Source: a virus
DNA length: 39,874 bases
IMG/VR virus record: IMGVR_UViG_3300045988_151782
Coordinates: 1 to 39,874 of that record
Direction: 5' to 3' (one strand)
Of this stretch, positions 3,279-38,565 are shown piece by piece (positions within the stretch are counted from its first letter, which is position 1; each line of letters begins with the position of its first letter). A program made the translations under genes and the position numbers. The notes under the pieces are model-generated. The model was not told the DNA's origin. It saw only the letters and a program-made list of their open reading frames with translations, and did no database searches.

Positions 3279-5123
3279 TTATTTCACGTTTCCGGCATAG
3301 CGCAGCTGCACATCCGTCTCCAACACCGTAGCGGTGGCGGAAGCGCTGTCGCTCTTGAAAATCAATCGGTAGAATGTTGCCTTTTTGACCTTGAGCTTTA
3401 ATCGTTCTACCTGGGGCTTCCGGTTCGTCAGAAAGGACCAGTGATTGAAATCCACATTGGTAAAGGAGGCGAAGGACGCTGCAACCACCTTGTCCGGGTA
3501 GTCGCTCCGGCGGTTGCTCTCGGCGGTGACGGTGATTCTCGCGTTATTCTCCGGCTTGATGGCTACAAAGATCACAGGGGAGTACTTGAGCTGCCAGTCC
3601 CGGTCAAAATCCATCGCGCCGGTGGCGGCATAGGCGCTGATTTCTTCGCCGTCGTCGTTGCGATAGGACCGGGACACCTCCTTGATCTTGCCCTCCTGCG
3701 TAAAGCCGAAGGTCCTCTGGTCCACCTCCAGCATAGAGACAAATGGCATGTTGGTGTAGGTGTACCAGGTATTGTTGGAGTAGTTCAGAATCAATGCGGT
3801 TTCCTTCCACAAAAACCAATACTCGTGATGATGCTTCCGGTTGAAGGTTTTCGTCTTCTCCAGATCAAAAGCACTGATGGTAGCGGCAATCCGGTCCGAT
3901 ATACGGGTCGCGTTTTGCTCGCTGTCGGTGATGTTCCCGCTGGAGGAGGTGGAGCGCCACTGATAAATGCTGCCGCCGTCCAGGGTCAGGGGGTTATTTT
4001 CCAGAAGGCGGACCTGTCCCGGGGCGTCGTTTCCGATCTGGCGGTTTACCGGGAGCACATAAAATGCCGGCGCGGTAATTCCGTTGTCCAGCACGGTGGT
4101 GCTGTATTGCAAAGACCACGCGCTGTCCCGTTTAAAAGCCATCAATCTTGCATAATGTCGAACCAGCGCTGTGATGGGGGTGTTGCTGTCTCCGATGGCG
4201 GCCTCATAGAGGTCCGGGAAGTACTCCGCCGTGGCAAGGCCCGTGTCCCCGTCAATGCCGCTGTAAATTGTCTTGTTGCTGCCGTCCCCGTATAGGAATA
4301 CCCGGCTGTCCAAAGAGCCGTTATAGAGCTCGGAGAAATGCATGGAGGTAACTTCCGCCCGCGCTCCATCTCCCTTTTTATAGGTCACGGTCACGGTGTT
4401 GGTGCCCTTTTCCGGTGCCGTTGCAAACGTCATCTTTCCGGCCGCCGTGTCCACCGTATAGGTGGCCTCCGTTCCCGTCACGGAGATCACGCTGTCAATC
4501 TCCTTTTCCGGCAGGAAAAAATCTTTGGCCGTTCCGTCCGGGGAAAACTTGACCCGCCGCTTGCCTGTCAGCCGGTTTACATTCTCCAGCAGCGTCCCGC
4601 TCCCGCCCGGTTCCGTTGCCGTCTGGATGACCGGGACATAGCCCTCCACCTCGGAAAACGTCTCGTCCTCCCCGGCGCCCCAGCTCATGTATTCGTGCCC
4701 GTTCAAGAGGTATACTTTCTCGTCAAATCCAAAGAAGGTGGTAGTTTCATCCTGGGTACAGGCCCCTACTGCGGTGACGGCCTCCGTCAGGATGTTCACG
4801 TCAAAAATAGCTCCGCCAAAGGCGCACAGCAGATGATAGGCCTTGTTGACCATCCCATACCAAGCGCCGCAGAAAACCGGCGCCTCGACAGGAGATTCCT
4901 GGTCCTCTGCCCAGGCATCCCAGGCGGTCCGCAAATGCAGCAGTGTGTGGGTACCCGGCCTAATCTGCAAGTGGCTGTCCTTGGTAATGGAGAAGTTCCG
5001 CATTTCGGACATCTCTCCAACACGGATTTTGGTGTCGCCGTCCTGATTCTCATTGAGACCTAGGAACTCCTTTATCCGCATGATCGTGATATTGCTGCCC
5101 GCTGCCATCTGGGCCAAGCTCAA
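3279..5123 (-). CDS. Virion structural protein of unknown role (possibly tail/adaptor)
   Basis: 614-aa ORF between large terminase and portal. The TTG start overlaps the terL stop (TTGA). The start codon is uncertain (alternative ATG 15 nt downstream). Confidence 0.6.
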   Translation of the reverse strand: MSLAQMAAGSNITIMRIKEFLGLNENQDGDTKIRVGEMSEMRNFSITKDSHLQIRPGTHTLLHLRTAWDAWAEDQESPVEAPVFCGAWYGMVNKAYHLLCAFGGAIFDVNILTEAVTAVGACTQDETTTFFGFDEKVYLLNGHEYMSWGAGEDETFSEVEGYVPVIQTATEPGGSGTLLENVNRLTGKRRVKFSPDGTAKDFFLPEKEIDSVISVTGTEATYTVDTAAGKMTFATAPEKGTNTVTVTYKKGDGARAEVTSMHFSELYNGSLDSRVFLYGDGSNKTIYSGIDGDTGLATAEYFPDLYEAAIGDSNTPITALVRHYARLMAFKRDSAWSLQYSTTVLDNGITAPAFYVLPVNRQIGNDAPGQVRLLENNPLTLDGGSIYQWRSTSSSGNITDSEQNATRISDRIAATISAFDLEKTKTFNRKHHHEYWFLWKETALILNYSNNTWYTYTNMPFVSMLEVDQRTFGFTQEGKIKEVSRSYRNDDGEEISAYAATGAMDFDRDWQLKYSPVIFVAIKPENNARITVTAESNRRSDYPDKVVAASFASFTNVDFNHWSFLTNRKPQVERLKLKVKKATFYRLIFKSDSASATATVLETDVQLRYAGNVK

Positions 5124-6517
5124 CCACCTCCGTACTCCAGATAATCCTCCGGCATCTCTCCGCCGGTCATCTCGTCGTCGTAATCCGTCATACCGGAATC
5201 CTCAAAATCCTCCGGCACAGGGGACTCCACCCGTTCCGCGCCCAATGTCCTGGTAACACAGAAATACCGGATGGCGTCGCAGATATGCGTGATCTCATGG
5301 GGCTGCACCGCGCAGTCTGACGGGTTCTTCTCGTCGTGCTGGATGGCGGCGATATGGGAGATGAGGGCTTGACAGTTGCTGGTCACCAGCAGCCCGGGGC
5401 GGTCCTGCGGCCTTGACAGGGGCTTGAGCAGCTCCTTCACAGCCATCCAGCCCTGTACCCGGTTGTTGCTGCCACGGATGATGCCCACGCCGTTCTCCAT
5501 GAACAGCTCTGCCATGCTGCGGCCGCTGTCCTTTTGCCGGTTCCACATGTCCGGCGGCGCAATCGTGAACTCGATGTGTTCCCACGGCGGCGTCGCGTCC
5601 AGCATCAGCTTCGCGGCCTCTGAGACGATCACACCGGACTGCTGCAATTCCCGGTATACATAGCAGCGCCCGTCAAAATCCACCGCAATCCAGAGGCAGG
5701 CGAACATGTCAAGGCCATAGTCAAAGGCCCGGTATTTCCTCCACTCCGCTGGAATCCGCCAGAACGGTTCTATCACATGAGTTTTCTTTGTAAACTCCGG
5801 GAAGAAGGACCCGGACAGGGCGTCCCAGTCGCCAAACCTCCAGGCATTGCGCACGTTGTCCGGCAGCAGGTCCAGCATCTGTACATACTCCGGAGACGCC
5901 GCCAGCAGCTGGGGGTTATCGTCCACCGTCGCGTGAATGAAGGTATAGTCCTCCGCCGTTTCGCCGTCCCGGTACTGCCTGGAGACGAACAGCCGTTTTA
6001 CCCAAAGGTGCCCGATGCCGCCGGGGTTGCAGGTCAGGTACATCCGGCGGGGGATATTCGTCGCGCCGCGCAGACACGCGCCCAAGGTGCGGAACTGGCT
6101 CTCCGTAAACTGCGTGGCCTCGTCCATGAAAATCCAGTCATATTCCTGGCCCTGGTACTCGTCGTCATCGCTCGTTCCATAATGTCCAAACTTGATCGTG
6201 GAACCGTTGGCGAAGAAAAACATATGCATGGAGCCGTTATAGACCGCAACCTCCTGCGGGATCAGCTTTCGCATGGGCAGAATCATGGTCTGCTCCAGCT
6301 CCGGGTATTCCCGCCGCACAATCAAAATCCGGATTCCCGGATAGGTCAGCGCACCGCCAAAGGCTTTGATTCGCAAAACGTGGCTCTTTCCGCCGCCTCT
6401 TGCCCCGCCATAGCCCACATACCGGGTTCTGGCCTGACAAAAGAGCTTTTGTTTGGGATTCAGTTCTCCCAAGTCCACGGAAATCATCCCGCTGTGGTTT
6501 CTGTATTTTCCAGCCAT
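5120..6517 (-). CDS. terL: Terminase large subunit
   Basis: Walker A GYGGARGGGKSH, Walker B YDWIFMDEATQF, and a C-terminal nuclease-like half; 465 aa. Confidence 0.9.
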   Translation of the reverse strand: MAGKYRNHSGMISVDLGELNPKQKLFCQARTRYVGYGGARGGGKSHVLRIKAFGGALTYPGIRILIVRREYPELEQTMILPMRKLIPQEVAVYNGSMHMFFFANGSTIKFGHYGTSDDDEYQGQEYDWIFMDEATQFTESQFRTLGACLRGATNIPRRMYLTCNPGGIGHLWVKRLFVSRQYRDGETAEDYTFIHATVDDNPQLLAASPEYVQMLDLLPDNVRNAWRFGDWDALSGSFFPEFTKKTHVIEPFWRIPAEWRKYRAFDYGLDMFACLWIAVDFDGRCYVYRELQQSGVIVSEAAKLMLDATPPWEHIEFTIAPPDMWNRQKDSGRSMAELFMENGVGIIRGSNNRVQGWMAVKELLKPLSRPQDRPGLLVTSNCQALISHIAAIQHDEKNPSDCAVQPHEITHICDAIRYFCVTRTLGAERVESPVPEDFEDSGMTDYDDEMTGGEMPEDYLEYGGG

Positions 6518-10088: not shown

Positions 10089-10162
10089 TGGCACGGGTGG
10101 AAGGCTCTGTTCCCCCAACCTCCGGTTTTGGAGACCGGCGCTCTCCATTGAGCTACACCCGT
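10089..10162 (-). tRNA. tRNA-Trp (anticodon CCA) with encoded CCA end and non-canonical T-arm
   Basis: Minus strand folds as ACGGGTG-TA-GCTC-AATGGA-GAGC-G-CCGGT-CTCCAAA-ACCGG-AGGTT-GGGGG-AACAGAG-CCTTC-CACCCGT-G-CCA. The acceptor, D and anticodon stems are perfect. The T-stem has two G-U pairs and the T-loop lacks TTC. Confidence 0.7.
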
Positions 10163-27893: not shown

Positions 27894-30800
27894 TCATGCA
27901 TAGGGATTCCGCTTCCAGCTTTTGTTGATGATCGTCCAGAGGTCCGCCTTTTGTTCCCGTGTGAAATCCTGCCCGTCCAGATAAGCCTGCGCCTCTGTTT
28001 GAGAAACGCTGTTGTTTCCGTCACTGTCAAGTCCGGCTTTCATGCCGGCATATTGCCCCACCGTTAACCCGGCCTGAACCGCCTGTATGGTTTTCTCATA
28101 GGCCTTTCCGCTCATGATCTCAGACCCATACTGGCGGTAAAGCGCCAAGTATTCCGCGGGAGAAACGCCCAATTCTCTCTGTGCGTTCTCCGCGTGGCCG
28201 ACCCACGCCGGCACACTGTCGTCCCCGAGGATCGCCTTCTTCGCCCGCTGGCTGGCGTAGTCGCCGCACAGATTCAGAAGCGTCGCCTTTTCCTCGTCGC
28301 TTGCCCCACGGTAAGCACGGCTGCCCATCATGGACGAAAATGTGGTGAGCGCCACAGCTCCGCGTTCCCGGAGATAGTCCTGCCGCTCCTCATAGGTCAG
28401 GGACTTGCTGTGCTGCTTCCCGTTACTGTCCGTGTAGGAGACCTTCGACGGGGCGCTCTTGCTGAGATAGAAGGAAGTATCTCCGGTTCGTCCCCGCAAG
28501 GTCTCCATCTCCCGTGATACCGCGCTTTGCGTGTAGGTGTTGACGCCGATGGGGTTCAACAGCGTATTGAGCAGGCGGGCCGTATCATTTTCAATCTGAT
28601 AGGTCTTCTCATCCCCCATAGGATTCACGGAGCCGGGGAGCTCTTCCCGCAGCACGGGGATGCTGTTCTGCACGGTATCACGTACATTTTCCAACAGTGT
28701 GTCTCCGGTATAGGTATTCCTGGGCCGGTCATCCAGGCCCCGCGCTGTTGTCCGCAGGATGTTCGGAATTACAGAGGCCGCGACGGTGTTAGCTCCCTCT
28801 TGCAAAAGCACCTCCCGCGGGTCCTCGCCGTACCGGATAATATCAGTCGCCGCGTTCCCGAGGAACTGCATGACGGGGAGCTCCGCGGTGGAGTCCATGA
28901 AGGCCTCGCTGGTAGCGTTGAACGCCGTCACGATGGGGTTTTGGTAATCCTTTGCCATCTCCGTTCCAAGATTCATCAGAAGATTCAGCGGCTGGACGGA
29001 GGACAGGTCGATCAGGGTGTCCCCATCCTGCCATACCGGACTCCCATCATGAATCCACCGCTCCGCCGCGGAGAGATTGAGCTGCGTCCCGGTGATTCCC
29101 TCGCTGGAGTTCAGCGCCGCCACATCGGGGTCGTTTTCATCGTCCGCCTGCCGGAGAAGTCCGGCCCTGGCAAGAAGCATGAAGCCGTAAGCGATTGCGG
29201 TCCCGGTCAGCCCCCGCGCCGTGTCGGAAACGGCCCGCGCCTGCGCCGCCGGGTCCACCGTTTTCTTCTGTACCGCTTGCGCCACATTCCTTGCGATCTC
29301 CACGGTCCCGCGCACGGCGTTCACCGGGGAGTATTCAAGCCCCCGGGAGGCGAGGTTTCCGGCCACGCGGGTAAACGGCGCCACAATATCGCCCAGGCCA
29401 AAGCTGTGGACGGTCTTTCCGCGGACGCTCCGCCCGCTGTCGCCCACGCCTGCAATCATATTCAAAACATCGTGAATGTCCTGAATGGCAATAGAAAGAG
29501 CGCTGTTGTCCTGGAACGTCCGGTAGCGGGCCAGGTTCTGAGCCTGCTCCTGGGCATAGCCGGGGTTGTCCGTCCTGATCTTTCCGGAATCTACCAGCGC
29601 CTGTGTGCGGCGCGCGGTCCCGCTGGCGAGTCCCTTATAAAACTCATCGGTTGCGTTCAGCAAATATGCCTGATTGCGCTCCAGCATGGAGAGAACCCGT
29701 TCCGGAAGTCTCCCGCCGGCGCGGAACGTGCGGTTGCTGCTGGTTCCATAACGGCTTTCGGTCCCGCTCATGTCCACGTCCATCGTGATCTCCGCAATCG
29801 CCATCCGCATGGCCTGCACAGCGGCGTTCAGGCTGGTCCCTCCGCTTGCGACGCTCCGGGTTCCTGTGACGTGGGAGAGCGCCATGTCCAGAATCGACGC
29901 GCCCCGCATGGCAAGGGCGTCAATCCCATAGAAAGACGTGTTTCCAACAAGGTTTCTCGCGGGGGTGACAGGGCTGGAGAGCATATTCAAAACCTGAATC
30001 GTCTTGATCCGCTGCCCCCAGTTCACCGGGGTGCTGTCCGTGCTGAGCGCGGAGGTGGCCGCATATGCGAACTGCTTAAGCTGGTCAAAGCTCAGCGCGT
30101 CCAGACTGCTGCCGGCCGCTGCCGTCAGGATGCGGCTCTCCCGGTTGGTCAGACTGTTGTTGAGTACTCCGCGCTGCCGGGACACCTCCAGAATGATGTC
30201 TTTAAGCTGCTGCGGTGTTTGGGCCTGTTCAATTTGGGTGTCCCACTGAACAATGCGCTGGAATAACCGCTGCCTGCCCTCGTCAGAGAGATTGGAGTTC
30301 TGCAGATTCTCCCAGGCTTCCAGCTCAGACGTCTGCCCGTTCTGGTTGTTCCGGCGGCTCCACTTGGCGTTAGCCTGGACGCCCTGGCCGGTGGAGGTCT
30401 CATGTTCCCGCATGATCTGTAGGAAATTCGTGTATTCCTCCGCTGGAATTTCCATGTTGGCGGATTTGCCCTGGAGCTCCTGCTGAATCATTCTGGCCGC
30501 GTCCATCTGCGGCGCGTTCCACGCCGTCGCGTCATCTAAGGATTGTACCAGCTCATGGAACGCCGCCTCATCAATGTCCCGCAGGAACGTCCGATGACCG
30601 TCCCGGATGAAATAGACCAGCTCCTCTGCTCTTGCGATAGACTGCCCCTCTGTCTGGCTCATATACCGGAAGAGCTTCGCGTAGTCATCCCGAGAGAGTC
30701 CAGTCGCCGCCTCCTGATATTGGTTGTACGGCATGGATTCCGCGAGACGGCTGGTCTGCTCCTTTCCCTCCATGCCGGGCGTTGTGAACCCCTCCCGCGC

Positions 30801-32873
30801 GCTCCCCAGATTATCATAAGTCTCACCGCTTTGCTGCTGTGGCCTCCCGAACAGGATGGTGTCAGAGTTGACATTTTCCGCCCCCGGTGCTATGATAGAA
30901 TCAGGATTGAGGGGACGCGTACCCTCAATCGGGCTTGACGTCTCGGTGGAAGCCGTAGGTGATGGACCTACCAAGCTGGCCTCCGCAGGCGTCAGGTCCC
31001 CAGACGCCGGAGATTGTGTCCCAGCGTCGCCATTGGCGGCAAGGCTGGTTGGAGTGGCACTTTCTCCCGCGTCTATTTTTATGATGTTTCCAGTGGAATC
31101 AACTACTTCATGCAGATAGAATCGGTTCTTACTGGTACGTTTCACCACTGCTGCCACATAAGCGGTCTGCCCGTCCATAATCACCGGAGCGGCAAACACA
31201 TACCCGTCATAGCCTCTATTTTTCCAGTTTTCCGCGAAATAGATTTGTTGCCCGCGCCGTATTACCTCCGGAACAGCAGCAATTGTAGCAGCTTTTGCAG
31301 GGCCCACTCCGTGACTCAGGTCATCTTTCACAGAGCGTCCATTGATTTCCACATCTCCAAAGTCTGGTCTTGTTACAATACCCTTGACAGTCTCAAACAA
31401 GTTCCGTGCTTTTTCGGCCATTGTACTGCCGCTCACACGCTCTATTGCCTGTATGCCTGTCCTTGCCACCGGCTCCACTTCTTTCAGCGCCGGTATACTC
31501 TCCTTCAATTTTTGGACTACGGTGTATGTATCGCGGTCCGCTTTCACCGCCGTCCCCACCTCGGGGGCGGTCTTGTTTTGCCCCAGGATGCCATGTGCGC
31601 CATCTTGCACCCCAGGGGCACCCGCGCCCCCGCTGTCCCTGCCAAACGCTCCTGCGCCCTCCTGTGCCGCCGTTGGGCCTATTCTGTTCACGGCCACATC
31701 TGTGGCACCGCCGACGCCGCCTAGCGCCGCACCTATCAGCCCATCATATAACGTGTCTGAAAGAAATTCCGGGTTCTGGTACTGGGAGAGAGCTCCGCTG
31801 TCATAGGTGATTCGTTGAAGAAGCGGCTGCACCAAGTCTTCCACCACTTCCTCCCCGCCCTCACCGATAGCAGAGAGCACGGTTCGACCTGCCGCGGACT
31901 GTGACAGCTTTGCGGGAAGCCGGGAGAGTGCGTCATCCAAAACGCCTGCGCCGAATGCGGCCTTAAACGGCGCGGCTACGTTTGAGATTTTCTCTGTGGC
32001 AACGGACAGCGCGGCGCTGCCCGTGCCGTATAGAAGCTGCTGCCCCAGGTCCGCACCGGACTGTCTGGCCGTCTGCGCGGAGGAACCAAAGCTTCGGACC
32101 GCCATCGGCAAAAGAGCGCCGCCGCCTGTCACGGAACCGGCCAAAATATCCCCTAGAAGTTGTGTCCCAGCCACGCCCACATCTACCGCAAACTGTCCCG
32201 CCCGGCCAAGACCTTCTTTGGCGGCGGCAATGTCTCCCTGAGAAGATGCGCTCAACCGGTCCGCACCGCCTTGGATGCGCTGAACGGCCTGAGATAGCGG
32301 CTCATGCTGCGCAGCTGCGCTCTCCGTGTAGACGCCGGCGCGCTGTTCCGCCAATTCCGCAAGACGGAGCAGGCGTTCCCGGTCCCCGTCCTCCATCGTC
32401 CTGCCGTCCGCGAACCTTCCGGCCGAAACCATCTCCCGGTAGCGTCTGGCGTTTTCCAGCTCCTGACGAGCCCTCTGGTTTTCCTGAGAGGCGTTGATGT
32501 CCGCCTGCCGCAGGGCGTCCAGCGCGGTCCCCGCAGTATTGGCAAATCCGGACGCCGTACTCTTTGCGGCGCCTCGAATGACAGCGCCGGTCCGCGACGA
32601 TAAAATCTCGTCAACGCCACGCTGCGCCTCCTGCTTGAGCTGGTTCCTCATGCTTAAGGCGCGACCTGGCAAAGAATCTTCTGCCTGAGCAGTATTCTTT
32701 TTCATACTAGAAGTTATCGCATTGACAAGTGCATCCTTTTTGATTTCTGGATTGCGTCCTGTCGGCTTTCGAACGGGGGCCTGTGCGCGTTTCCGAACCG
32801 CCTGGACCTGTTCTTCGGTTGGGTTTGCGGAACCGTATACCCGTCTTCTCAGATCATCAAATTCTTTTGACAT
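27894..32873 (-). CDS. Giant virion-associated protein (ejection/internal or polyvalent type)
   Basis: 1659-aa uninterrupted ORF. The N-terminal third is A/G/S-rich and tape-measure-like. An internal module ...ENWKNRGYDGYVFAAPVIMDGQTAYVAAVVKRTSKNRFYLHEV is typical of polyvalent-protein domains. Confidence 0.65.
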   Translation of the reverse strand: MSKEFDDLRRRVYGSANPTEEQVQAVRKRAQAPVRKPTGRNPEIKKDALVNAITSSMKKNTAQAEDSLPGRALSMRNQLKQEAQRGVDEILSSRTGAVIRGAAKSTASGFANTAGTALDALRQADINASQENQRARQELENARRYREMVSAGRFADGRTMEDGDRERLLRLAELAEQRAGVYTESAAAQHEPLSQAVQRIQGGADRLSASSQGDIAAAKEGLGRAGQFAVDVGVAGTQLLGDILAGSVTGGGALLPMAVRSFGSSAQTARQSGADLGQQLLYGTGSAALSVATEKISNVAAPFKAAFGAGVLDDALSRLPAKLSQSAAGRTVLSAIGEGGEEVVEDLVQPLLQRITYDSGALSQYQNPEFLSDTLYDGLIGAALGGVGGATDVAVNRIGPTAAQEGAGAFGRDSGGAGAPGVQDGAHGILGQNKTAPEVGTAVKADRDTYTVVQKLKESIPALKEVEPVARTGIQAIERVSGSTMAEKARNLFETVKGIVTRPDFGDVEINGRSVKDDLSHGVGPAKAATIAAVPEVIRRGQQIYFAENWKNRGYDGYVFAAPVIMDGQTAYVAAVVKRTSKNRFYLHEVVDSTGNIIKIDAGESATPTSLAANGDAGTQSPASGDLTPAEASLVGPSPTASTETSSPIEGTRPLNPDSIIAPGAENVNSDTILFGRPQQQSGETYDNLGSAREGFTTPGMEGKEQTSRLAESMPYNQYQEAATGLSRDDYAKLFRYMSQTEGQSIARAEELVYFIRDGHRTFLRDIDEAAFHELVQSLDDATAWNAPQMDAARMIQQELQGKSANMEIPAEEYTNFLQIMREHETSTGQGVQANAKWSRRNNQNGQTSELEAWENLQNSNLSDEGRQRLFQRIVQWDTQIEQAQTPQQLKDIILEVSRQRGVLNNSLTNRESRILTAAAGSSLDALSFDQLKQFAYAATSALSTDSTPVNWGQRIKTIQVLNMLSSPVTPARNLVGNTSFYGIDALAMRGASILDMALSHVTGTRSVASGGTSLNAAVQAMRMAIAEITMDVDMSGTESRYGTSSNRTFRAGGRLPERVLSMLERNQAYLLNATDEFYKGLASGTARRTQALVDSGKIRTDNPGYAQEQAQNLARYRTFQDNSALSIAIQDIHDVLNMIAGVGDSGRSVRGKTVHSFGLGDIVAPFTRVAGNLASRGLEYSPVNAVRGTVEIARNVAQAVQKKTVDPAAQARAVSDTARGLTGTAIAYGFMLLARAGLLRQADDENDPDVAALNSSEGITGTQLNLSAAERWIHDGSPVWQDGDTLIDLSSVQPLNLLMNLGTEMAKDYQNPIVTAFNATSEAFMDSTAELPVMQFLGNAATDIIRYGEDPREVLLQEGANTVAASVIPNILRTTARGLDDRPRNTYTGDTLLENVRDTVQNSIPVLREELPGSVNPMGDEKTYQIENDTARLLNTLLNPIGVNTYTQSAVSREMETLRGRTGDTSFYLSKSAPSKVSYTDSNGKQHSKSLTYEERQDYLRERGAVALTTFSSMMGSRAYRGASDEEKATLLNLCGDYASQRAKKAILGDDSVPAWVGHAENAQRELGVSPAEYLALYRQYGSEIMSGKAYEKTIQAVQAGLTVGQYAGMKAGLDSDGNNSVSQTEAQAYLDGQDFTREQKADLWTIINKSWKRNPYA

Positions 32874-35051: not shown

Positions 35052-35080
35052 TTGACTTTTTGCCTTTCATAAATTATATT
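35052..35080 (+). promoter_or_regulatory. Promoter of the accessory plus-strand island
   Basis: TTGACT, 17 nt, TATATT. Confidence 0.55.
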
Positions 35081-35109
35081 AAATGCAAGGCGAAAAGTGG
35101 GGTGATAAA

Positions 35110-35283
35110 ATGTCGCCTAGAACAGGAAGGCCGAAAGTAGATAATCCGAAGGGCGTAAACCTGACAATCAGGTTAGACACGGAAACCGAAAAGGCCCTCA
35201 GAGAATATTGCAAGAAACACAATATTTCTCGTGGTGAAGCCATACGACAAGGAATCCATCTACTTTTAGCCGCAGAAAAGTGA
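35110..35283 (+). CDS. Ribbon-helix-helix (CopG-like) protein
   Basis: MSPRTGRPKVDNPKGVNLTIRLDTETEKALREYCKKHNISRGEAIRQGIHLLL. The ATG at 35110 follows GGGGTGA. The track start at 35083 lies upstream of the predicted transcription start. Confidence 0.7.
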   Translation: MSPRTGRPKVDNPKGVNLTIRLDTETEKALREYCKKHNISRGEAIRQGIHLLLAAEK

Positions 35284-36362: not shown

Positions 36363-36393
36363 AGCCCCCGCCGGACTTTCCCCGGCGGGGGCT
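36363..36393 (+). terminator. Terminator hairpin after the antirepressor gene
   Basis: 12-bp stem AGCCCCCGCCGG / CCGGCGGGGGCT with a 7-nt loop; the T-tract is weak. Confidence 0.6.
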
Positions 36394-36519
36394 CTTAAAA
36401 TCTGCTGGAACACTATTGACAACCGTGATATACTTTAATTTGTAACTGGTTGTTGCTTTTTTTAACCATTTGTGTAGTATACAATTACATAAATACTTTG
36501 TCGTGGTGGTATAGTAAGG

Positions 36520-37038
36520 ATGTCAAAATTACAGCTCGTTGTGATAGACAAAGATATTCCAGCTGATGCTATCTCATGCGGAGAAAAAAGCATTGATGCG
36601 CTGATGCAACAGGCATATCCTAGCACACTGTTCAAGCAGGGGCGCGCATATAATATTCTAATCGATGACAAATTGATTGGCAGTTGCATGATAAGATTTG
36701 TTTCGCTTTATGATAAAGACGCGGAATATTATGTAGGCCATAAGGACTATACCGCGCTTGAAATATCATATCTTGCAATAGATTCCCGTATACAGGGGCA
36801 TGGATATGGCAGGTTAGTATTGAAACAGCTAATTCTTTTGGCTCGGAGGATTGCGGACGATCTTCCTGTTAGGTTCCTTGTATTAGATGCCTTTAAAGAT
36901 AAGGAAGAATGGTATACATCAGCCGGGTTTAAAATATATCCCAAAAAGAAAGACTTACGATATCCTGGAACGCTGCCAATGAGAATGGATTTGATTGACA
37001 AGAAGCTGGCTGAAAATTATGCGCAATCATTTATGTAA
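36520..37038 (+). CDS. GNAT acetyltransferase resembling TacT/AtaT-type toxins
   Basis: 172 aa; ISCGEKSIDALMQQA, SYLAIDSRIQGHGYGRLVL, LVLDAFKDKEEWYTSAGF. It lies in the AT-rich island. Confidence 0.7.
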   Translation: MSKLQLVVIDKDIPADAISCGEKSIDALMQQAYPSTLFKQGRAYNILIDDKLIGSCMIRFVSLYDKDAEYYVGHKDYTALEISYLAIDSRIQGHGYGRLVLKQLILLARRIADDLPVRFLVLDAFKDKEEWYTSAGFKIYPKKKDLRYPGTLPMRMDLIDKKLAENYAQSFM

Positions 37039-37054
37039 CAAGGAGGGATGAAAC

Positions 37055-37372
37055 GTGTATGGATGCAGAATTGAATTGCAGCACGATCAAGCGCAGGCAT
37101 TTTTTGAGGAAGCATTACATCCAGACCTGGAAGAACTTCAGCGGCGAGATGCCTTCTTGGAACAGCTTGAACAAGAAATGAATCTTCAGATACATGGCTC
37201 AAGCATTATAATGGAAATTCCGGATGTTAACATTGATATGCTTTTAAACACGGAAAAAACATATATTTCTATTGAAGATCTGCCATGTACGCTTGCACTG
37301 GGGACAACAGTCAATATCGAAAAGCGAGTTTCAGCGTATACTATCAGACCAACCATAGATATAGCGGCTTAA
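37055..37372 (+). CDS. Acidic 105-aa protein, putative antitoxin with C-terminal extension
   Basis: GTG start 7 nt after AGGAGGG. The N-terminus RIELQHDQAQAFFEEALHPDLEELQRRDAFL resembles the toxin-binding tail of DUF1778 antitoxins. I saw no RHH domain. Confidence 0.45.
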   Translation: MYGCRIELQHDQAQAFFEEALHPDLEELQRRDAFLEQLEQEMNLQIHGSSIIMEIPDVNIDMLLNTEKTYISIEDLPCTLALGTTVNIEKRVSAYTIRPTIDIAA

Positions 37373-37389
37373 AAATGACGAGGTACGAA

Positions 37390-37812
37390 ATGAACGAGTC
37401 GGATTGTGTCTTGAAGCTTAATCACCTGGTATTTGATGAATTATCTTTTCGCCGCAAAAATTTCCAAAGCGAAAATGATATACATTTTGAATTCGGATTC
37501 AATTTTGAGCAACGAGGAGACGTAGATTTTGTTGCCCATCTTCAAATCAAAGGTATCAAAGAAAATGAATATGATATTGGTGCACGAGCATCCGGGTATT
37601 TCACCTTAAACGATGCCGCAAATTATGACTTTCTTACACTACGGCAGAATGCGGTAGCGATTGTATTTCCATATCTTAGAAGCCAGATTTCATTGTTGAC
37701 GGCACAACCTGAGGTTAAGCCTGTCATAATACCCCCGATGAATATTGCGCAAATGGTTGAAGATACGCTAAAAGCTCAGTCCGAATCACTTAGCAACGAA
37801 AAAGATAGCTGA
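37390..37812 (+). CDS. SecB-like chaperone
   Basis: 140 aa, GAGG 6 nt before the ATG. LNHLVFDELSFRRKN... and NAVAIVFPYLRSQISLLTAQPEVKPVIIPPMNIAQMV parallel E. coli SecB. Confidence 0.7.
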   Translation: MNESDCVLKLNHLVFDELSFRRKNFQSENDIHFEFGFNFEQRGDVDFVAHLQIKGIKENEYDIGARASGYFTLNDAANYDFLTLRQNAVAIVFPYLRSQISLLTAQPEVKPVIIPPMNIAQMVEDTLKAQSESLSNEKDS

Positions 37813-37833
37813 TCATTTTTCGGAACATATCTT

Positions 37834-37870
37834 CCCCCGAAGAGCCTTATTGACTCTCCGGGGGATTTTT
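37834..37870 (+). terminator. Rho-independent terminator of the three-gene cassette
   Basis: CCCCCGAAGAG-9 nt-CTCTCCGGGGG (one mismatch) followed by ATTTTTTAT. It abuts the endolysin stop. Confidence 0.75.
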
Positions 37871-38565
37871 TATGTTCTTCTCTGTTTCTTTGCCAGCCTG
37901 TACAGCATGGTACACATCTGCTCCCTGGTTACGCTTTGGGAGAGCATCAAATCTCCCTCCGCATTTCCCCGCAGGATGCCGTTCTCCACGGCCCACTCCA
38001 CGCCCTCCTTGTGGGCGGGAGATGGGGTGTTATCCATGGTCTTTCCCTCCAATCTCTTCTTGAACTCCGCCCACTTCTGGGCATTCACCAGATACGACGG
38101 ACAGTGTTTTCCTGTCACGTCGAAGTGGCGGTACACATTTCTCAGCGGGATGCCGTACTTTTCCATCAGCTCCCGGCCCAGGGCGGCGGCATTTGCCAGG
38201 GTTGCTTCGCTGGCCTGATAAATGCCGTTGCGGATGGTATCGCACATCTCAATGCTGATGCTGTTGGTGTTGGTGATCATCCCATACATCGTCCCACCGC
38301 CGGTCTTGTCGGCGTTGGCGTACTTCTTACCGCCCACCGCCCAGGCCACCTTCAGATCAGGCACAGAACGCCAGACCGTGGTATCGTCCACAAAGTAGTG
38401 GGCGCTGGCCTGCACGATATTGTTTTGAAAATAGGCGGCGTTGTTGGCTGCTTGGTCCCCGTCGTTGCCGGTGTAGTGGAACACCAGGTATTTGATCTGA
38501 TTGACAGCCCGGGAACCGCCATAGTTCCCGGGGTTGGCTAACCGCTCCTGAAGAATATAGCTCAC
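37870..38565 (-). CDS. Endolysin: N-acetylmuramoyl-L-alanine amidase (Amidase_2) with SLH-like C-terminal domain
   Basis: IKYLVFHYTGNDGD...SAHYFVDD; the C-terminus is ...GVEWAVENGILRGNAEGDLMLSQSVTREQMCTMLYR. The GTG start overlaps the holin stop. Confidence 0.85.
   Translation of the reverse strand: MSYILQERLANPGNYGGSRAVNQIKYLVFHYTGNDGDQAANNAAYFQNNIVQASAHYFVDDTTVWRSVPDLKVAWAVGGKKYANADKTGGGTMYGMITNTNSISIEMCDTIRNGIYQASEATLANAAALGRELMEKYGIPLRNVYRHFDVTGKHCPSYLVNAQKWAEFKKRLEGKTMDNTPSPAHKEGVEWAVENGILRGNAEGDLMLSQSVTREQMCTMLYRLAKKQRRT

Follow-up and report, generated by a model that had tools for sequence, protein, structure and literature searches.

A candidate toxin-antitoxin-chaperone operon on a phage of gut Clostridia

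We analyzed 39,874 nucleotides (nt) of viral DNA, positions 1 to 39,874 of the IMG/VR record IMGVR_UViG_3300045988_151782 (the whole stretch is called the window here), and in it a low-GC block of three open reading frames (ORFs). We consider it likely that these genes form a toxin-antitoxin-chaperone (TAC) operon that was acquired by horizontal transfer and that a temperate phage of gut Oscillospiraceae-like Clostridia carries as cargo, with a new toxin/antitoxin pair joined to a CmdC-type chaperone. ORF1 is a candidate toxin of the GNAT family, ORF2 is the candidate antitoxin, and ORF3 is a SecB-like chaperone. The operon and its flanking signals are laid out as follows.

36363 to 36393, + strand: hairpin directly 3' of the antirepressor stop codon, with a 12-bp GC stem
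36416 to 36519, + strand: AT-rich leader, putative promoter and 5' untranslated region, with TTGACA at 36416 to 36421 and candidate -10 elements
36520 to 37038, + strand: ORF1, candidate toxin; ATG start, 172 amino acids (aa), isoelectric point (pI) 8.4, GNAT
37055 to 37372, + strand: ORF2, candidate antitoxin; GTG start, 105 aa, pI 4.4
37390 to 37812, + strand: ORF3, SecB-like chaperone of CmdC (PD-T4-9_C) type; ATG start, 140 aa, pI 4.8
37833 to 37873, + strand: hairpin and U6 tract forming the cassette's intrinsic terminator

The three genes share one strand, with spacings of 16 nt (ORF1 to ORF2) and 17 nt (ORF2 to ORF3), and only one terminator follows, after ORF3. Each start is preceded by a purine-rich Shine-Dalgarno sequence (AAGGAGG 7 nt 5' of ORF2 and GAGG 6 nt 5' of ORF3). 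The start of ORF3 was taken as 37390; a mechanical ORF list puts it upstream, at 37285. The GC content of the cassette is 39.1%, against 54.1% for the whole window, and GC content at third codon positions is 0.35 to 0.38 in ORF1, ORF2, and ORF3, against 0.79 in the adjoining antirepressor gene. Because both values fall far below those of the window and the neighboring gene, the cassette is compositionally foreign.

The upstream hairpin folds at -29.2 kcal/mol (z = -4.95), and none of 200 shuffled sequences folded equally well. It lies at the left edge of the low-GC block and, despite the missing U-tract, probably ends the antirepressor transcript. The downstream hairpin (about 37833 to 37865, then U6; -27.8 kcal/mol, z = -5.5) belongs to a terminator that overlaps the stop codon of the convergent endolysin gene. 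A simple terminator scan missed both hairpins owing to its loop and tail rules. We infer that the leader (36416 to 36519) holds a putative promoter of the cassette's own. In the regions upstream of homologous cassettes, which do not align, the sole conserved piece is GGTGGTATAA directly 5' of the ATG. An earlier note, made from the letters of the window alone, had described the three + strand ORFs with their gaps and Shine-Dalgarno sequences, a set of peptide motifs, the low GC content, the two strong hairpins, and a position between an antirepressor gene and the lysis genes. All of these are present, the motifs as they had been written.

ORF1 groups with tRNA-acetylating GNAT toxins

Pfam returned only generic GNAT matches for ORF1 (Acetyltransf_1, 1.9e-5). 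When the PDB was searched with ORF1 alone (phmmer), the matches were almost only GNAT toxins of toxin-antitoxin (TA) systems (AtaT, KacT, and TacT). A family profile built from 21 sequences had ItaT as its best match (7byy, 8.5e-9, residues 15 to 153). This structure is that of Escherichia coli ItaT, which acetylates aminoacyl-tRNAs (PMC7367177). The general acid of ItaT, Y150 (numbering confirmed), pairs with the invariant Y132 of ORF1, the acetyl-CoA motif residues Q110, G113, and G115 pair with Q92, G95, and G97, and an N-terminal CG-x3-[IL]D motif is common to both proteins (C20-G21 in ORF1). In an alignment of ORF1 with six plasmid GNAT toxins encoded beside annotated DUF1778 genes, to which it is 13 to 21% identical, residues C20, G54, G97, A124, Y132, and F137 were invariant and G21 and G136 nearly so.

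The AlphaFold2 model of ORF1 (pLDDT 81, pTM 0.77) was compared with PDB structures by Foldseek. Ranks 1 to 30 were all GNAT TA toxins (ItaT, GmvT, TacT1 to TacT3, AtaT, AtaT2, and KacT), and generic GNATs such as GCN5 appeared from rank 31 on. In PADLOC, ORF1 matched no model, including PD-T4-9_A (CmdT), which did match the control loci L014, L023, and L036. ORF1 therefore falls, as had been proposed from its motifs, with the TacT/AtaT/ItaT-type toxins and not with generic GNATs. We conclude from sequence and predicted structure that ORF1 belongs to the aminoacyl-tRNA-acetylating toxin clade of GNATs and is a candidate toxin.

ORF3 is a SecB-like protein of the CmdC type

Two PD-T4-9_C models of PADLOC matched ORF3 (3.3e-15 and 5.7e-10), and the former match is stronger than those of the chaperones from genuine CmdT-containing loci. 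The match to Pfam SecB (1e-4) lies under the gathering cutoff, and the majority of ORF3 homologues have a precomputed PF02556 match. A phmmer search of the PDB with ORF3 alone found no match; a family profile (19 sequences) was needed and aligned over its full length with Haemophilus influenzae SecB (1fx3, 3.8e-5). The SecB-like nature of ORF3, which the earlier note had proposed, is thus seen with profile hidden Markov models, and the similarity places ORF3 in the CmdC type.

We regard it as scarcely credible that ORF3 is a phage-supplied SecB for general protein export, or that the three ORFs are unrelated neighbors. NCBI does call relatives of ORF3 "protein-export chaperone SecB," but the housekeeping SecB equivalog models of NCBIfam score ORF3 at 16 to 21 bits, short of their cutoffs of 103 to 223. 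The gene, moreover, is found on phage and other mobile elements whose named hosts are Bacillota, and many of its homologues are in Eubacteriales. Bacillota are not known to have a SecB export pathway. Chance proximity is countered by the conservation of the whole trio, described below.

ORF2 belongs to an unannotated family with a conserved domain and a variable tail

Searches of ORF2 against Pfam, NCBIfam, PADLOC, and PHROGs returned nothing credible. An exhaustive HMMER search of 1.84 billion representative sequences found 82 relatives, an unannotated family of about 80 clusters. These are short proteins, apart from three of more than 4,000 aa whose matches are spurious. In nearly all, the match begins at the protein's own N terminus, and the extended ones that were read (three of four) have neither a ribbon-helix-helix (RHH) motif nor an extra N-terminal domain. 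A match of the ORF2 profile to protein A in the PDB was spurious and driven by repeats.

An alignment of 49 sequences revealed a conserved N-terminal domain of about 65 aa (L8, F16, P23, R31, D32, F34, and I55-P56-D57 are nearly invariant) and a tail of variable length with a Tyr about 10 residues from the end. In ORF2, this residue is Y95 and the C terminus reads -IAA. An -AA end occurs in 38 of the 54 full-length family members, compared with 3.5% of the background ORFs from the loci retrieved. AlphaFold2 predicts helices at residues 10 to 21 and 25 to 41, a beta-hairpin at 44 to 53, a short helix at 60 to 64, and disorder to residue 105. The shape of the tail (residues 66 to 105) resembles a chaperone-addiction (ChAD) element with an LAA-type signal, a resemblance drawn with no chaperone-independent homologue available for comparison. 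By analogy with known TACs, the tail may be read as a chaperone-addiction element joined to a ClpXP-type degron. The proteins also contrast in charge, ORF2 being acidic (pI 4.4) and ORF1 basic (pI 8.4).

The trio is conserved across mobile elements of gut Eubacteriales

A GNAT gene (170 to 178 aa), an ORF2-family gene (105 to 141 aa), and a SecB-like gene (131 to 141 aa) were found together in at least six distinct mobile-element contexts of gut Eubacteriales, in keeping with the reading in the earlier note. Identities to the window proteins are 42 to 56% for ORF1, 36 to 42% for ORF2, and 49 to 68% for ORF3. The contexts, with locus labels, are as follows.

L001 to L005 and L013: integrase/MobL relaxase elements in "Eubacteriales" genomes
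L006 to L010: an integrase/sigma-factor element
L011 and L012: a Dysosmobacter metagenome-assembled genome (MAG; taxonomy checked)
L015: an Oscillibacter MAG
L119, and L123 to L126: two more contexts

A seventh, more divergent trio has an ORF2 relative at 26% identity. All three genes stay in synteny in widely differing surroundings and at identities as low as 24 to 42%, which argues against unrelated neighbors.

Five IMG/VR contigs of the window phage share an identical 1.48-kb cassette, bar a single extra base in one contig, whereas the antirepressor and RHH genes beside it vary. That base is a G inserted in a G-run at the equivalent of window position 36646 (L020, IMGVR_UViG_3300045988_140544); it puts ORF1 out of frame, whether through an error of assembly or through a mutation that inactivates the putative toxin. 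Proteins identical to those of the window are found on about 250 contigs, and the cluster of one relative on more than 900, from human-gut metagenomes. Because the cassette is common there, it may shape phage-phage competition in gut Clostridia. A blastn search of 50,697 phage records with the cassette found no match. In public records, these proteins bear only the names "GNAT family N-acetyltransferase" or "acetoin utilization protein," "hypothetical protein," and "(protein-export chaperone) SecB."

Related chaperones stand behind other toxins

In a Lachnospiraceae MAG (L014, 2047 to 3294), a CmdT-like ADP-ribosyltransferase (ART) gene and a gene for a short protein are followed by a SecB-like gene whose product is 51% identical to ORF3. 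Because so similar a chaperone follows an ART, closely related chaperones appear to serve different toxin-antitoxin pairs. The tail of the short protein contains DYTVE, which resembles the Tyr motif of ORF2, AYTIR; this hints that the tail motif tracks the chaperone clade and not the toxin. A short C-terminal ChAD element has been defined and shown to be transferable (PMC5105189), and a hybrid HigC-CmdTA has been built (bioRxiv 10.1101/2024.02.24.581848). Swapping of the L014 type is the natural counterpart of these engineered transfers.

More distant SecB-like genes sit behind CmdT-like ARTs (confirmed by PD-T4-9_A matches) or HEPN proteins, and the middle genes of these cassettes likewise end in -AA. 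Three IMG/VR loci (L047, 3851 to 5129; L046; and L051) encode a HEPN protein (Pfam 2.6e-4), a protein of about 150 aa, and then a SecB-like protein. The middle protein ends in -LAA in L047 and L051 and in -NAA in L046, and the L051 cassette lies directly upstream of a very large ORF of 1,295 aa. From its gene content, this arrangement looks like a TAC cassette with a HEPN warhead. Two further loci (L043, 4566 to 5821, and L049, 4487 to 5684) have the order antitoxin-chaperone-toxin, not toxin-antitoxin-chaperone: a small protein ending in -FAFAA (L049) or -DFSF (L043), a SecB-like protein, and an ART-like protein with a WLGxGxYFWD motif.

Evidence against a GNAT-toxin TAC, and the alternative of a nontoxic acetyltransferase

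Several results weigh against the interpretation of the block as a self-contained TAC operon with a tRNA-acetylating toxin. At the level of expression, a consensus promoter scan found no convincing promoter in the leader, so the cassette's own promoter is putative. At the level of the antitoxin, the similarity of ORF2 to known antitoxins did not reach significance. The earlier note had likened the start of ORF2 to the C-terminal neutralizing segment of DUF1778/TacA-type antitoxins, lacking the RHH part and extended at its C terminus. The absence of an RHH domain and the presence of the extension stood. As for the DUF1778 resemblance, hhalign did align ORF2 residues 4 to 31 with ItaR residues 63 to 90, the register that had been proposed, but the E values of the ORF2 family against six DUF1778 proteins were 0.24 and 0.12, not significant, and a Pfam scan of 49 family members at E ≤ 10 gave scattered chance matches, none of them to DUF1778. 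That the N terminus is a DUF1778 neutralizing segment is therefore unproven. Against six CmdA-like proteins, the family gave E = 0.26, with the terminal -AA alone in common; the PD-T4-9 antitoxin model of PADLOC did not match ORF2; and Foldseek returned nothing below E = 5 for the ORF2 model. Because no relative was detectable among known antitoxins, the antitoxin role is argued from position, charge, and co-conservation.

A third point concerns a variant cassette between serine recombinases (L120, 1951 to 3341; also L121 and L122). Its GNAT is homologous to ORF1 (hhalign 99.8%), and its ORF2-family protein has 155 aa and is without the -AA end. The third protein (126 aa) has no detectable SecB similarity and no Pfam match. 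For this reason, the locus was not counted as a TAC, and a GNAT and ORF2-family pair can exist without a recognizable SecB. This cassette may use another partner or chaperone.

Finally, the residues that form the aminoacyl pocket of ItaT (V36, I37, F40, and M102) are not conserved in ORF1 (S24, I25, L28, and Y84). Because of this difference, the substrate of ORF1 cannot be named and could be other than aminoacyl-tRNA. The same difference favors an account in which ORF1 is not a toxin at all but acetylates something else, such as a small molecule or a protein of the host or the phage, with ORF2 and ORF3 acting as substrate adaptor and chaperone for a phage process or as part of an antidefense device. 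Such activity would have a precedent in AtaT, which is reported to acetylate a protein lysine (PMC7957018), and it would suit the generic public annotation of the relatives. We nevertheless consider this account very improbable. All 30 top structural neighbors are tRNA-acetylating TA toxins, and ORF1 retains its catalytic and cofactor residues; the genes are tightly packed, and the acidic partner has a degron-like end. Elsewhere, moreover, chaperones of this type occur in cassettes whose toxin is an ART or a HEPN protein. The frameshift of ORF1 by 1 nt in one of five otherwise identical contigs is weakly suggestive of counterselection against a toxin.

A possible role in phage defense, and the alternative of addiction

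If the block is a TAC operon, its proteins could act as follows. ORF1 would acetylate the amino group of charged tRNAs using acetyl-CoA, and translation would stop, as its sequence and structural relatives suggest. The acidic helical N-terminal domain of ORF2 would bind and block the basic ORF1, and the disordered tail, with its conserved Tyr and terminal -AA, would make ORF2 an unstable substrate of ClpXP. By analogy with known TACs, ORF3 would bind the ORF2 tail and keep ORF2 soluble and protected, so that the complex would be harmless in a lysogen. Upon infection by another phage, an abundant structural protein might then compete for ORF3, as in CmdTAC and HigBAC. Titration of ORF3 would expose ORF2 to degradation and free ORF1, whereupon translation would stop and the infection would abort. 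The same instability of ORF2 could also stabilize the mobile element that carries the cassette.

We place a role for the cassette in phage defense a little short of an even chance; both the role and its trigger are drawn purely by analogy, which counts against them. We also give slightly less than even odds to the fuller proposal: that the cassette is the founding example of a TAC antiphage system with a GNAT warhead, widely carried by the phages and integrative elements of human-gut Clostridia, in which a CmdC-like chaperone may sense a competitor phage's structural protein and release a tRNA-acetylating toxin held by a new antitoxin fold.

The main alternative keeps the same TAC architecture and biochemistry and assigns it to addiction, that is, postsegregational killing for the benefit of a prophage or integrative element instead of defense. 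Upon loss of the element, synthesis of ORF2 and ORF3 would stop, ORF2 would decay, and ORF1 would arrest the cell. The instability features of ORF2 suit this role equally, the trio resides not on phages alone but on mobile elements of various kinds (marked by integrases, recombinases, or a MobL relaxase), and plasmids often carry classical GNAT/DUF1778 modules (643 plasmid records). On the other side, both of the published TACs that are prophage-borne and have a CmdC- or HigC-type chaperone act in defense by chaperone titration, the titrating structural proteins shown being T4 Gp23 for CmdC and lambda gpV for HigC, and the site downstream of the endolysin holds variable cargo, as is typical of defense or moron genes. 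We judge addiction as the sole role to be unlikely, although addiction and defense are compatible and not mutually exclusive.

Relation to known systems

The closest system in organization is CmdTAC (PD-T4-9) of E. coli (PMC11618068, PMC9519451). It shares with the cassette the toxin-antitoxin-chaperone gene order, pointed out earlier as matching known TACs, a SecB-like chaperone of the same subfamily, and an antitoxin (in the cassette, the candidate ORF2) built of N-terminal helices followed by a long disordered stretch and a final -AA. The ClpXP signal LAA stands at the end of CmdA, as it does in the antitoxins of the other TACs known (PMC11618068). Prophage-borne examples of CmdTAC exist, and translation is the predicted target in both systems. 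The cassette differs in that its candidate toxin is a GNAT, whereas CmdT is an ART acting on mRNA (PMC11618068), in an ORF2 N-terminal domain unrelated to CmdA-like proteins, and in its occurrence in gut Clostridia, whereas CmdTAC is found in Enterobacteria.

The GNAT/DUF1778 type II TA systems (TacAT, AtaRT, KacAT, ItaRT, and GmvAT) are the source of all the best sequence and structure matches to ORF1, with which their toxins share the fold, the CG motif, the Q/RxxGxG motif, and the catalytic Tyr. In contrast to these systems, ORF2 is not a DUF1778 or RHH protein, the toxin gene comes first, and a chaperone gene is added. The TAC of Mycobacterium tuberculosis (HigB1-HigA1-SecB^TA) and the E. 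coli prophage HigBAC (PMC5105189; bioRxiv 10.1101/2024.02.24.581848) have the same three-gene logic, the involvement of ClpXP, and a C-terminal chaperone-addiction element with key aromatic residues in the antitoxin. Their ChAD/chaperone pairs are modular and can be moved between toxin-antitoxin pairs. Unlike the cassette proteins, their toxins are ribosome-dependent RNases and their antitoxins are helix-turn-helix proteins, and their chaperones are only distantly related to ORF3.

What would be new is the joining of a GNAT toxin/antitoxin pair to a CmdC-type chaperone; TAC modularity, prophage-borne TACs, and an ART toxin in a TAC are already known. In the open-access literature and bioRxiv, we found no paper on a SecB-linked GNAT toxin, in line with the earlier claim of novelty, although absence there is not proof. 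(A Lactobacillus "SecB homolog" paper that mentions GNAT was irrelevant.) The accompanying claim that a prophage-encoded TAC had not been described fails, because HigBAC and CmdTAC are published as such (bioRxiv 10.1101/2024.02.24.581848). The list of TAC toxins from which the earlier note reasoned (HigB, MqsR, and HicA) was likewise outdated: CmdTAC has an ART (PMC11618068), and it is specifically CmdC that ORF3 resembles. Because TAC modularity is established, a new warhead is a discovery of an expected kind.

If confirmed, an acetyltransferase would be the fourth enzymatic class of TAC toxin, beside RNases, the CmdT ART, and possibly HEPN proteins, and the cassette would be a natural case of the warhead/sensor modularity engineered in Bordes 2016 and Mets 2024. 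ORF2 would found a new antitoxin family for GNAT toxins, and ORF1 would be the first GNAT toxin with a non-DUF1778 antitoxin. GNAT toxin homologues have been described as almost absent from Firmicutes (PMC9177977). The proteins related to ORF1 would, if truly toxins, be the first substantial GNAT-toxin clade there and would qualify that statement. Surveys anchored on DUF1778 would miss this gut Eubacteriales clade.

Phage context and the cargo site

The window is a tailed-phage fragment by its PHROGs matches (portal, 6e-23; large terminase, 4e-42; major head protein, 1e-45). A megablast search with its first 25 kb gave short matches only. The left neighbor of the cassette is an AntA/KilAC antirepressor gene (Pfam 2e-21 and 3e-24). 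To the right, on the - strand and convergent with the cassette, lies an Amidase_2 endolysin gene (7e-24) preceded by a holin-like ORF.

A near-identical phage (L064, IMGVR_UViG_3300007353_000023) encodes an endolysin 97% identical to that of the window and, downstream, a 426-aa protein 100% identical to its window counterpart. At the same site by the endolysin (4743 to 5584), three other ORFs of 83, 133, and 111 aa, of which the third matches DUF2283 (4.5e-4), replace the RHH-p81-antirepressor-cassette block of the window. Because L064 carries different small genes there, the site downstream of the lysis genes is a variable cargo locus. The alternative cargo may be another TA-like module.

Upstream of the antirepressor gene, positions 35052 to 35283 (+ strand) encode a 66-aa RHH protein (Pfam RHH_1, 4.6e-5; DUF6290, 3e-5), and the best sigma-70-like promoter match of the region (10 of 12 positions) precedes this gene. 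The + strand block of the RHH gene, an 81-aa ORF, and the antirepressor gene varies together with the cassette among related phages. The RHH protein could be a regulator; DUF6290, which it matches, is an antitoxin-like family.

Two further features of the window were noted. Positions 10092 to 10162 (- strand) match the Rfam tRNA model at full length (53.9 bits, E = 5e-9) and are 92 to 95% identical by blastn to actinophage tRNA-Trp genes; ARAGORN found none. This is probably a phage-encoded tRNA. Positions 27894 to 32873 (- strand) hold a 1,659-aa ORF with a "large polyvalent protein-associated domain 3" (LPD3, 2.6e-9), a type of domain typical of the giant multidomain proteins of phages and conjugative elements.

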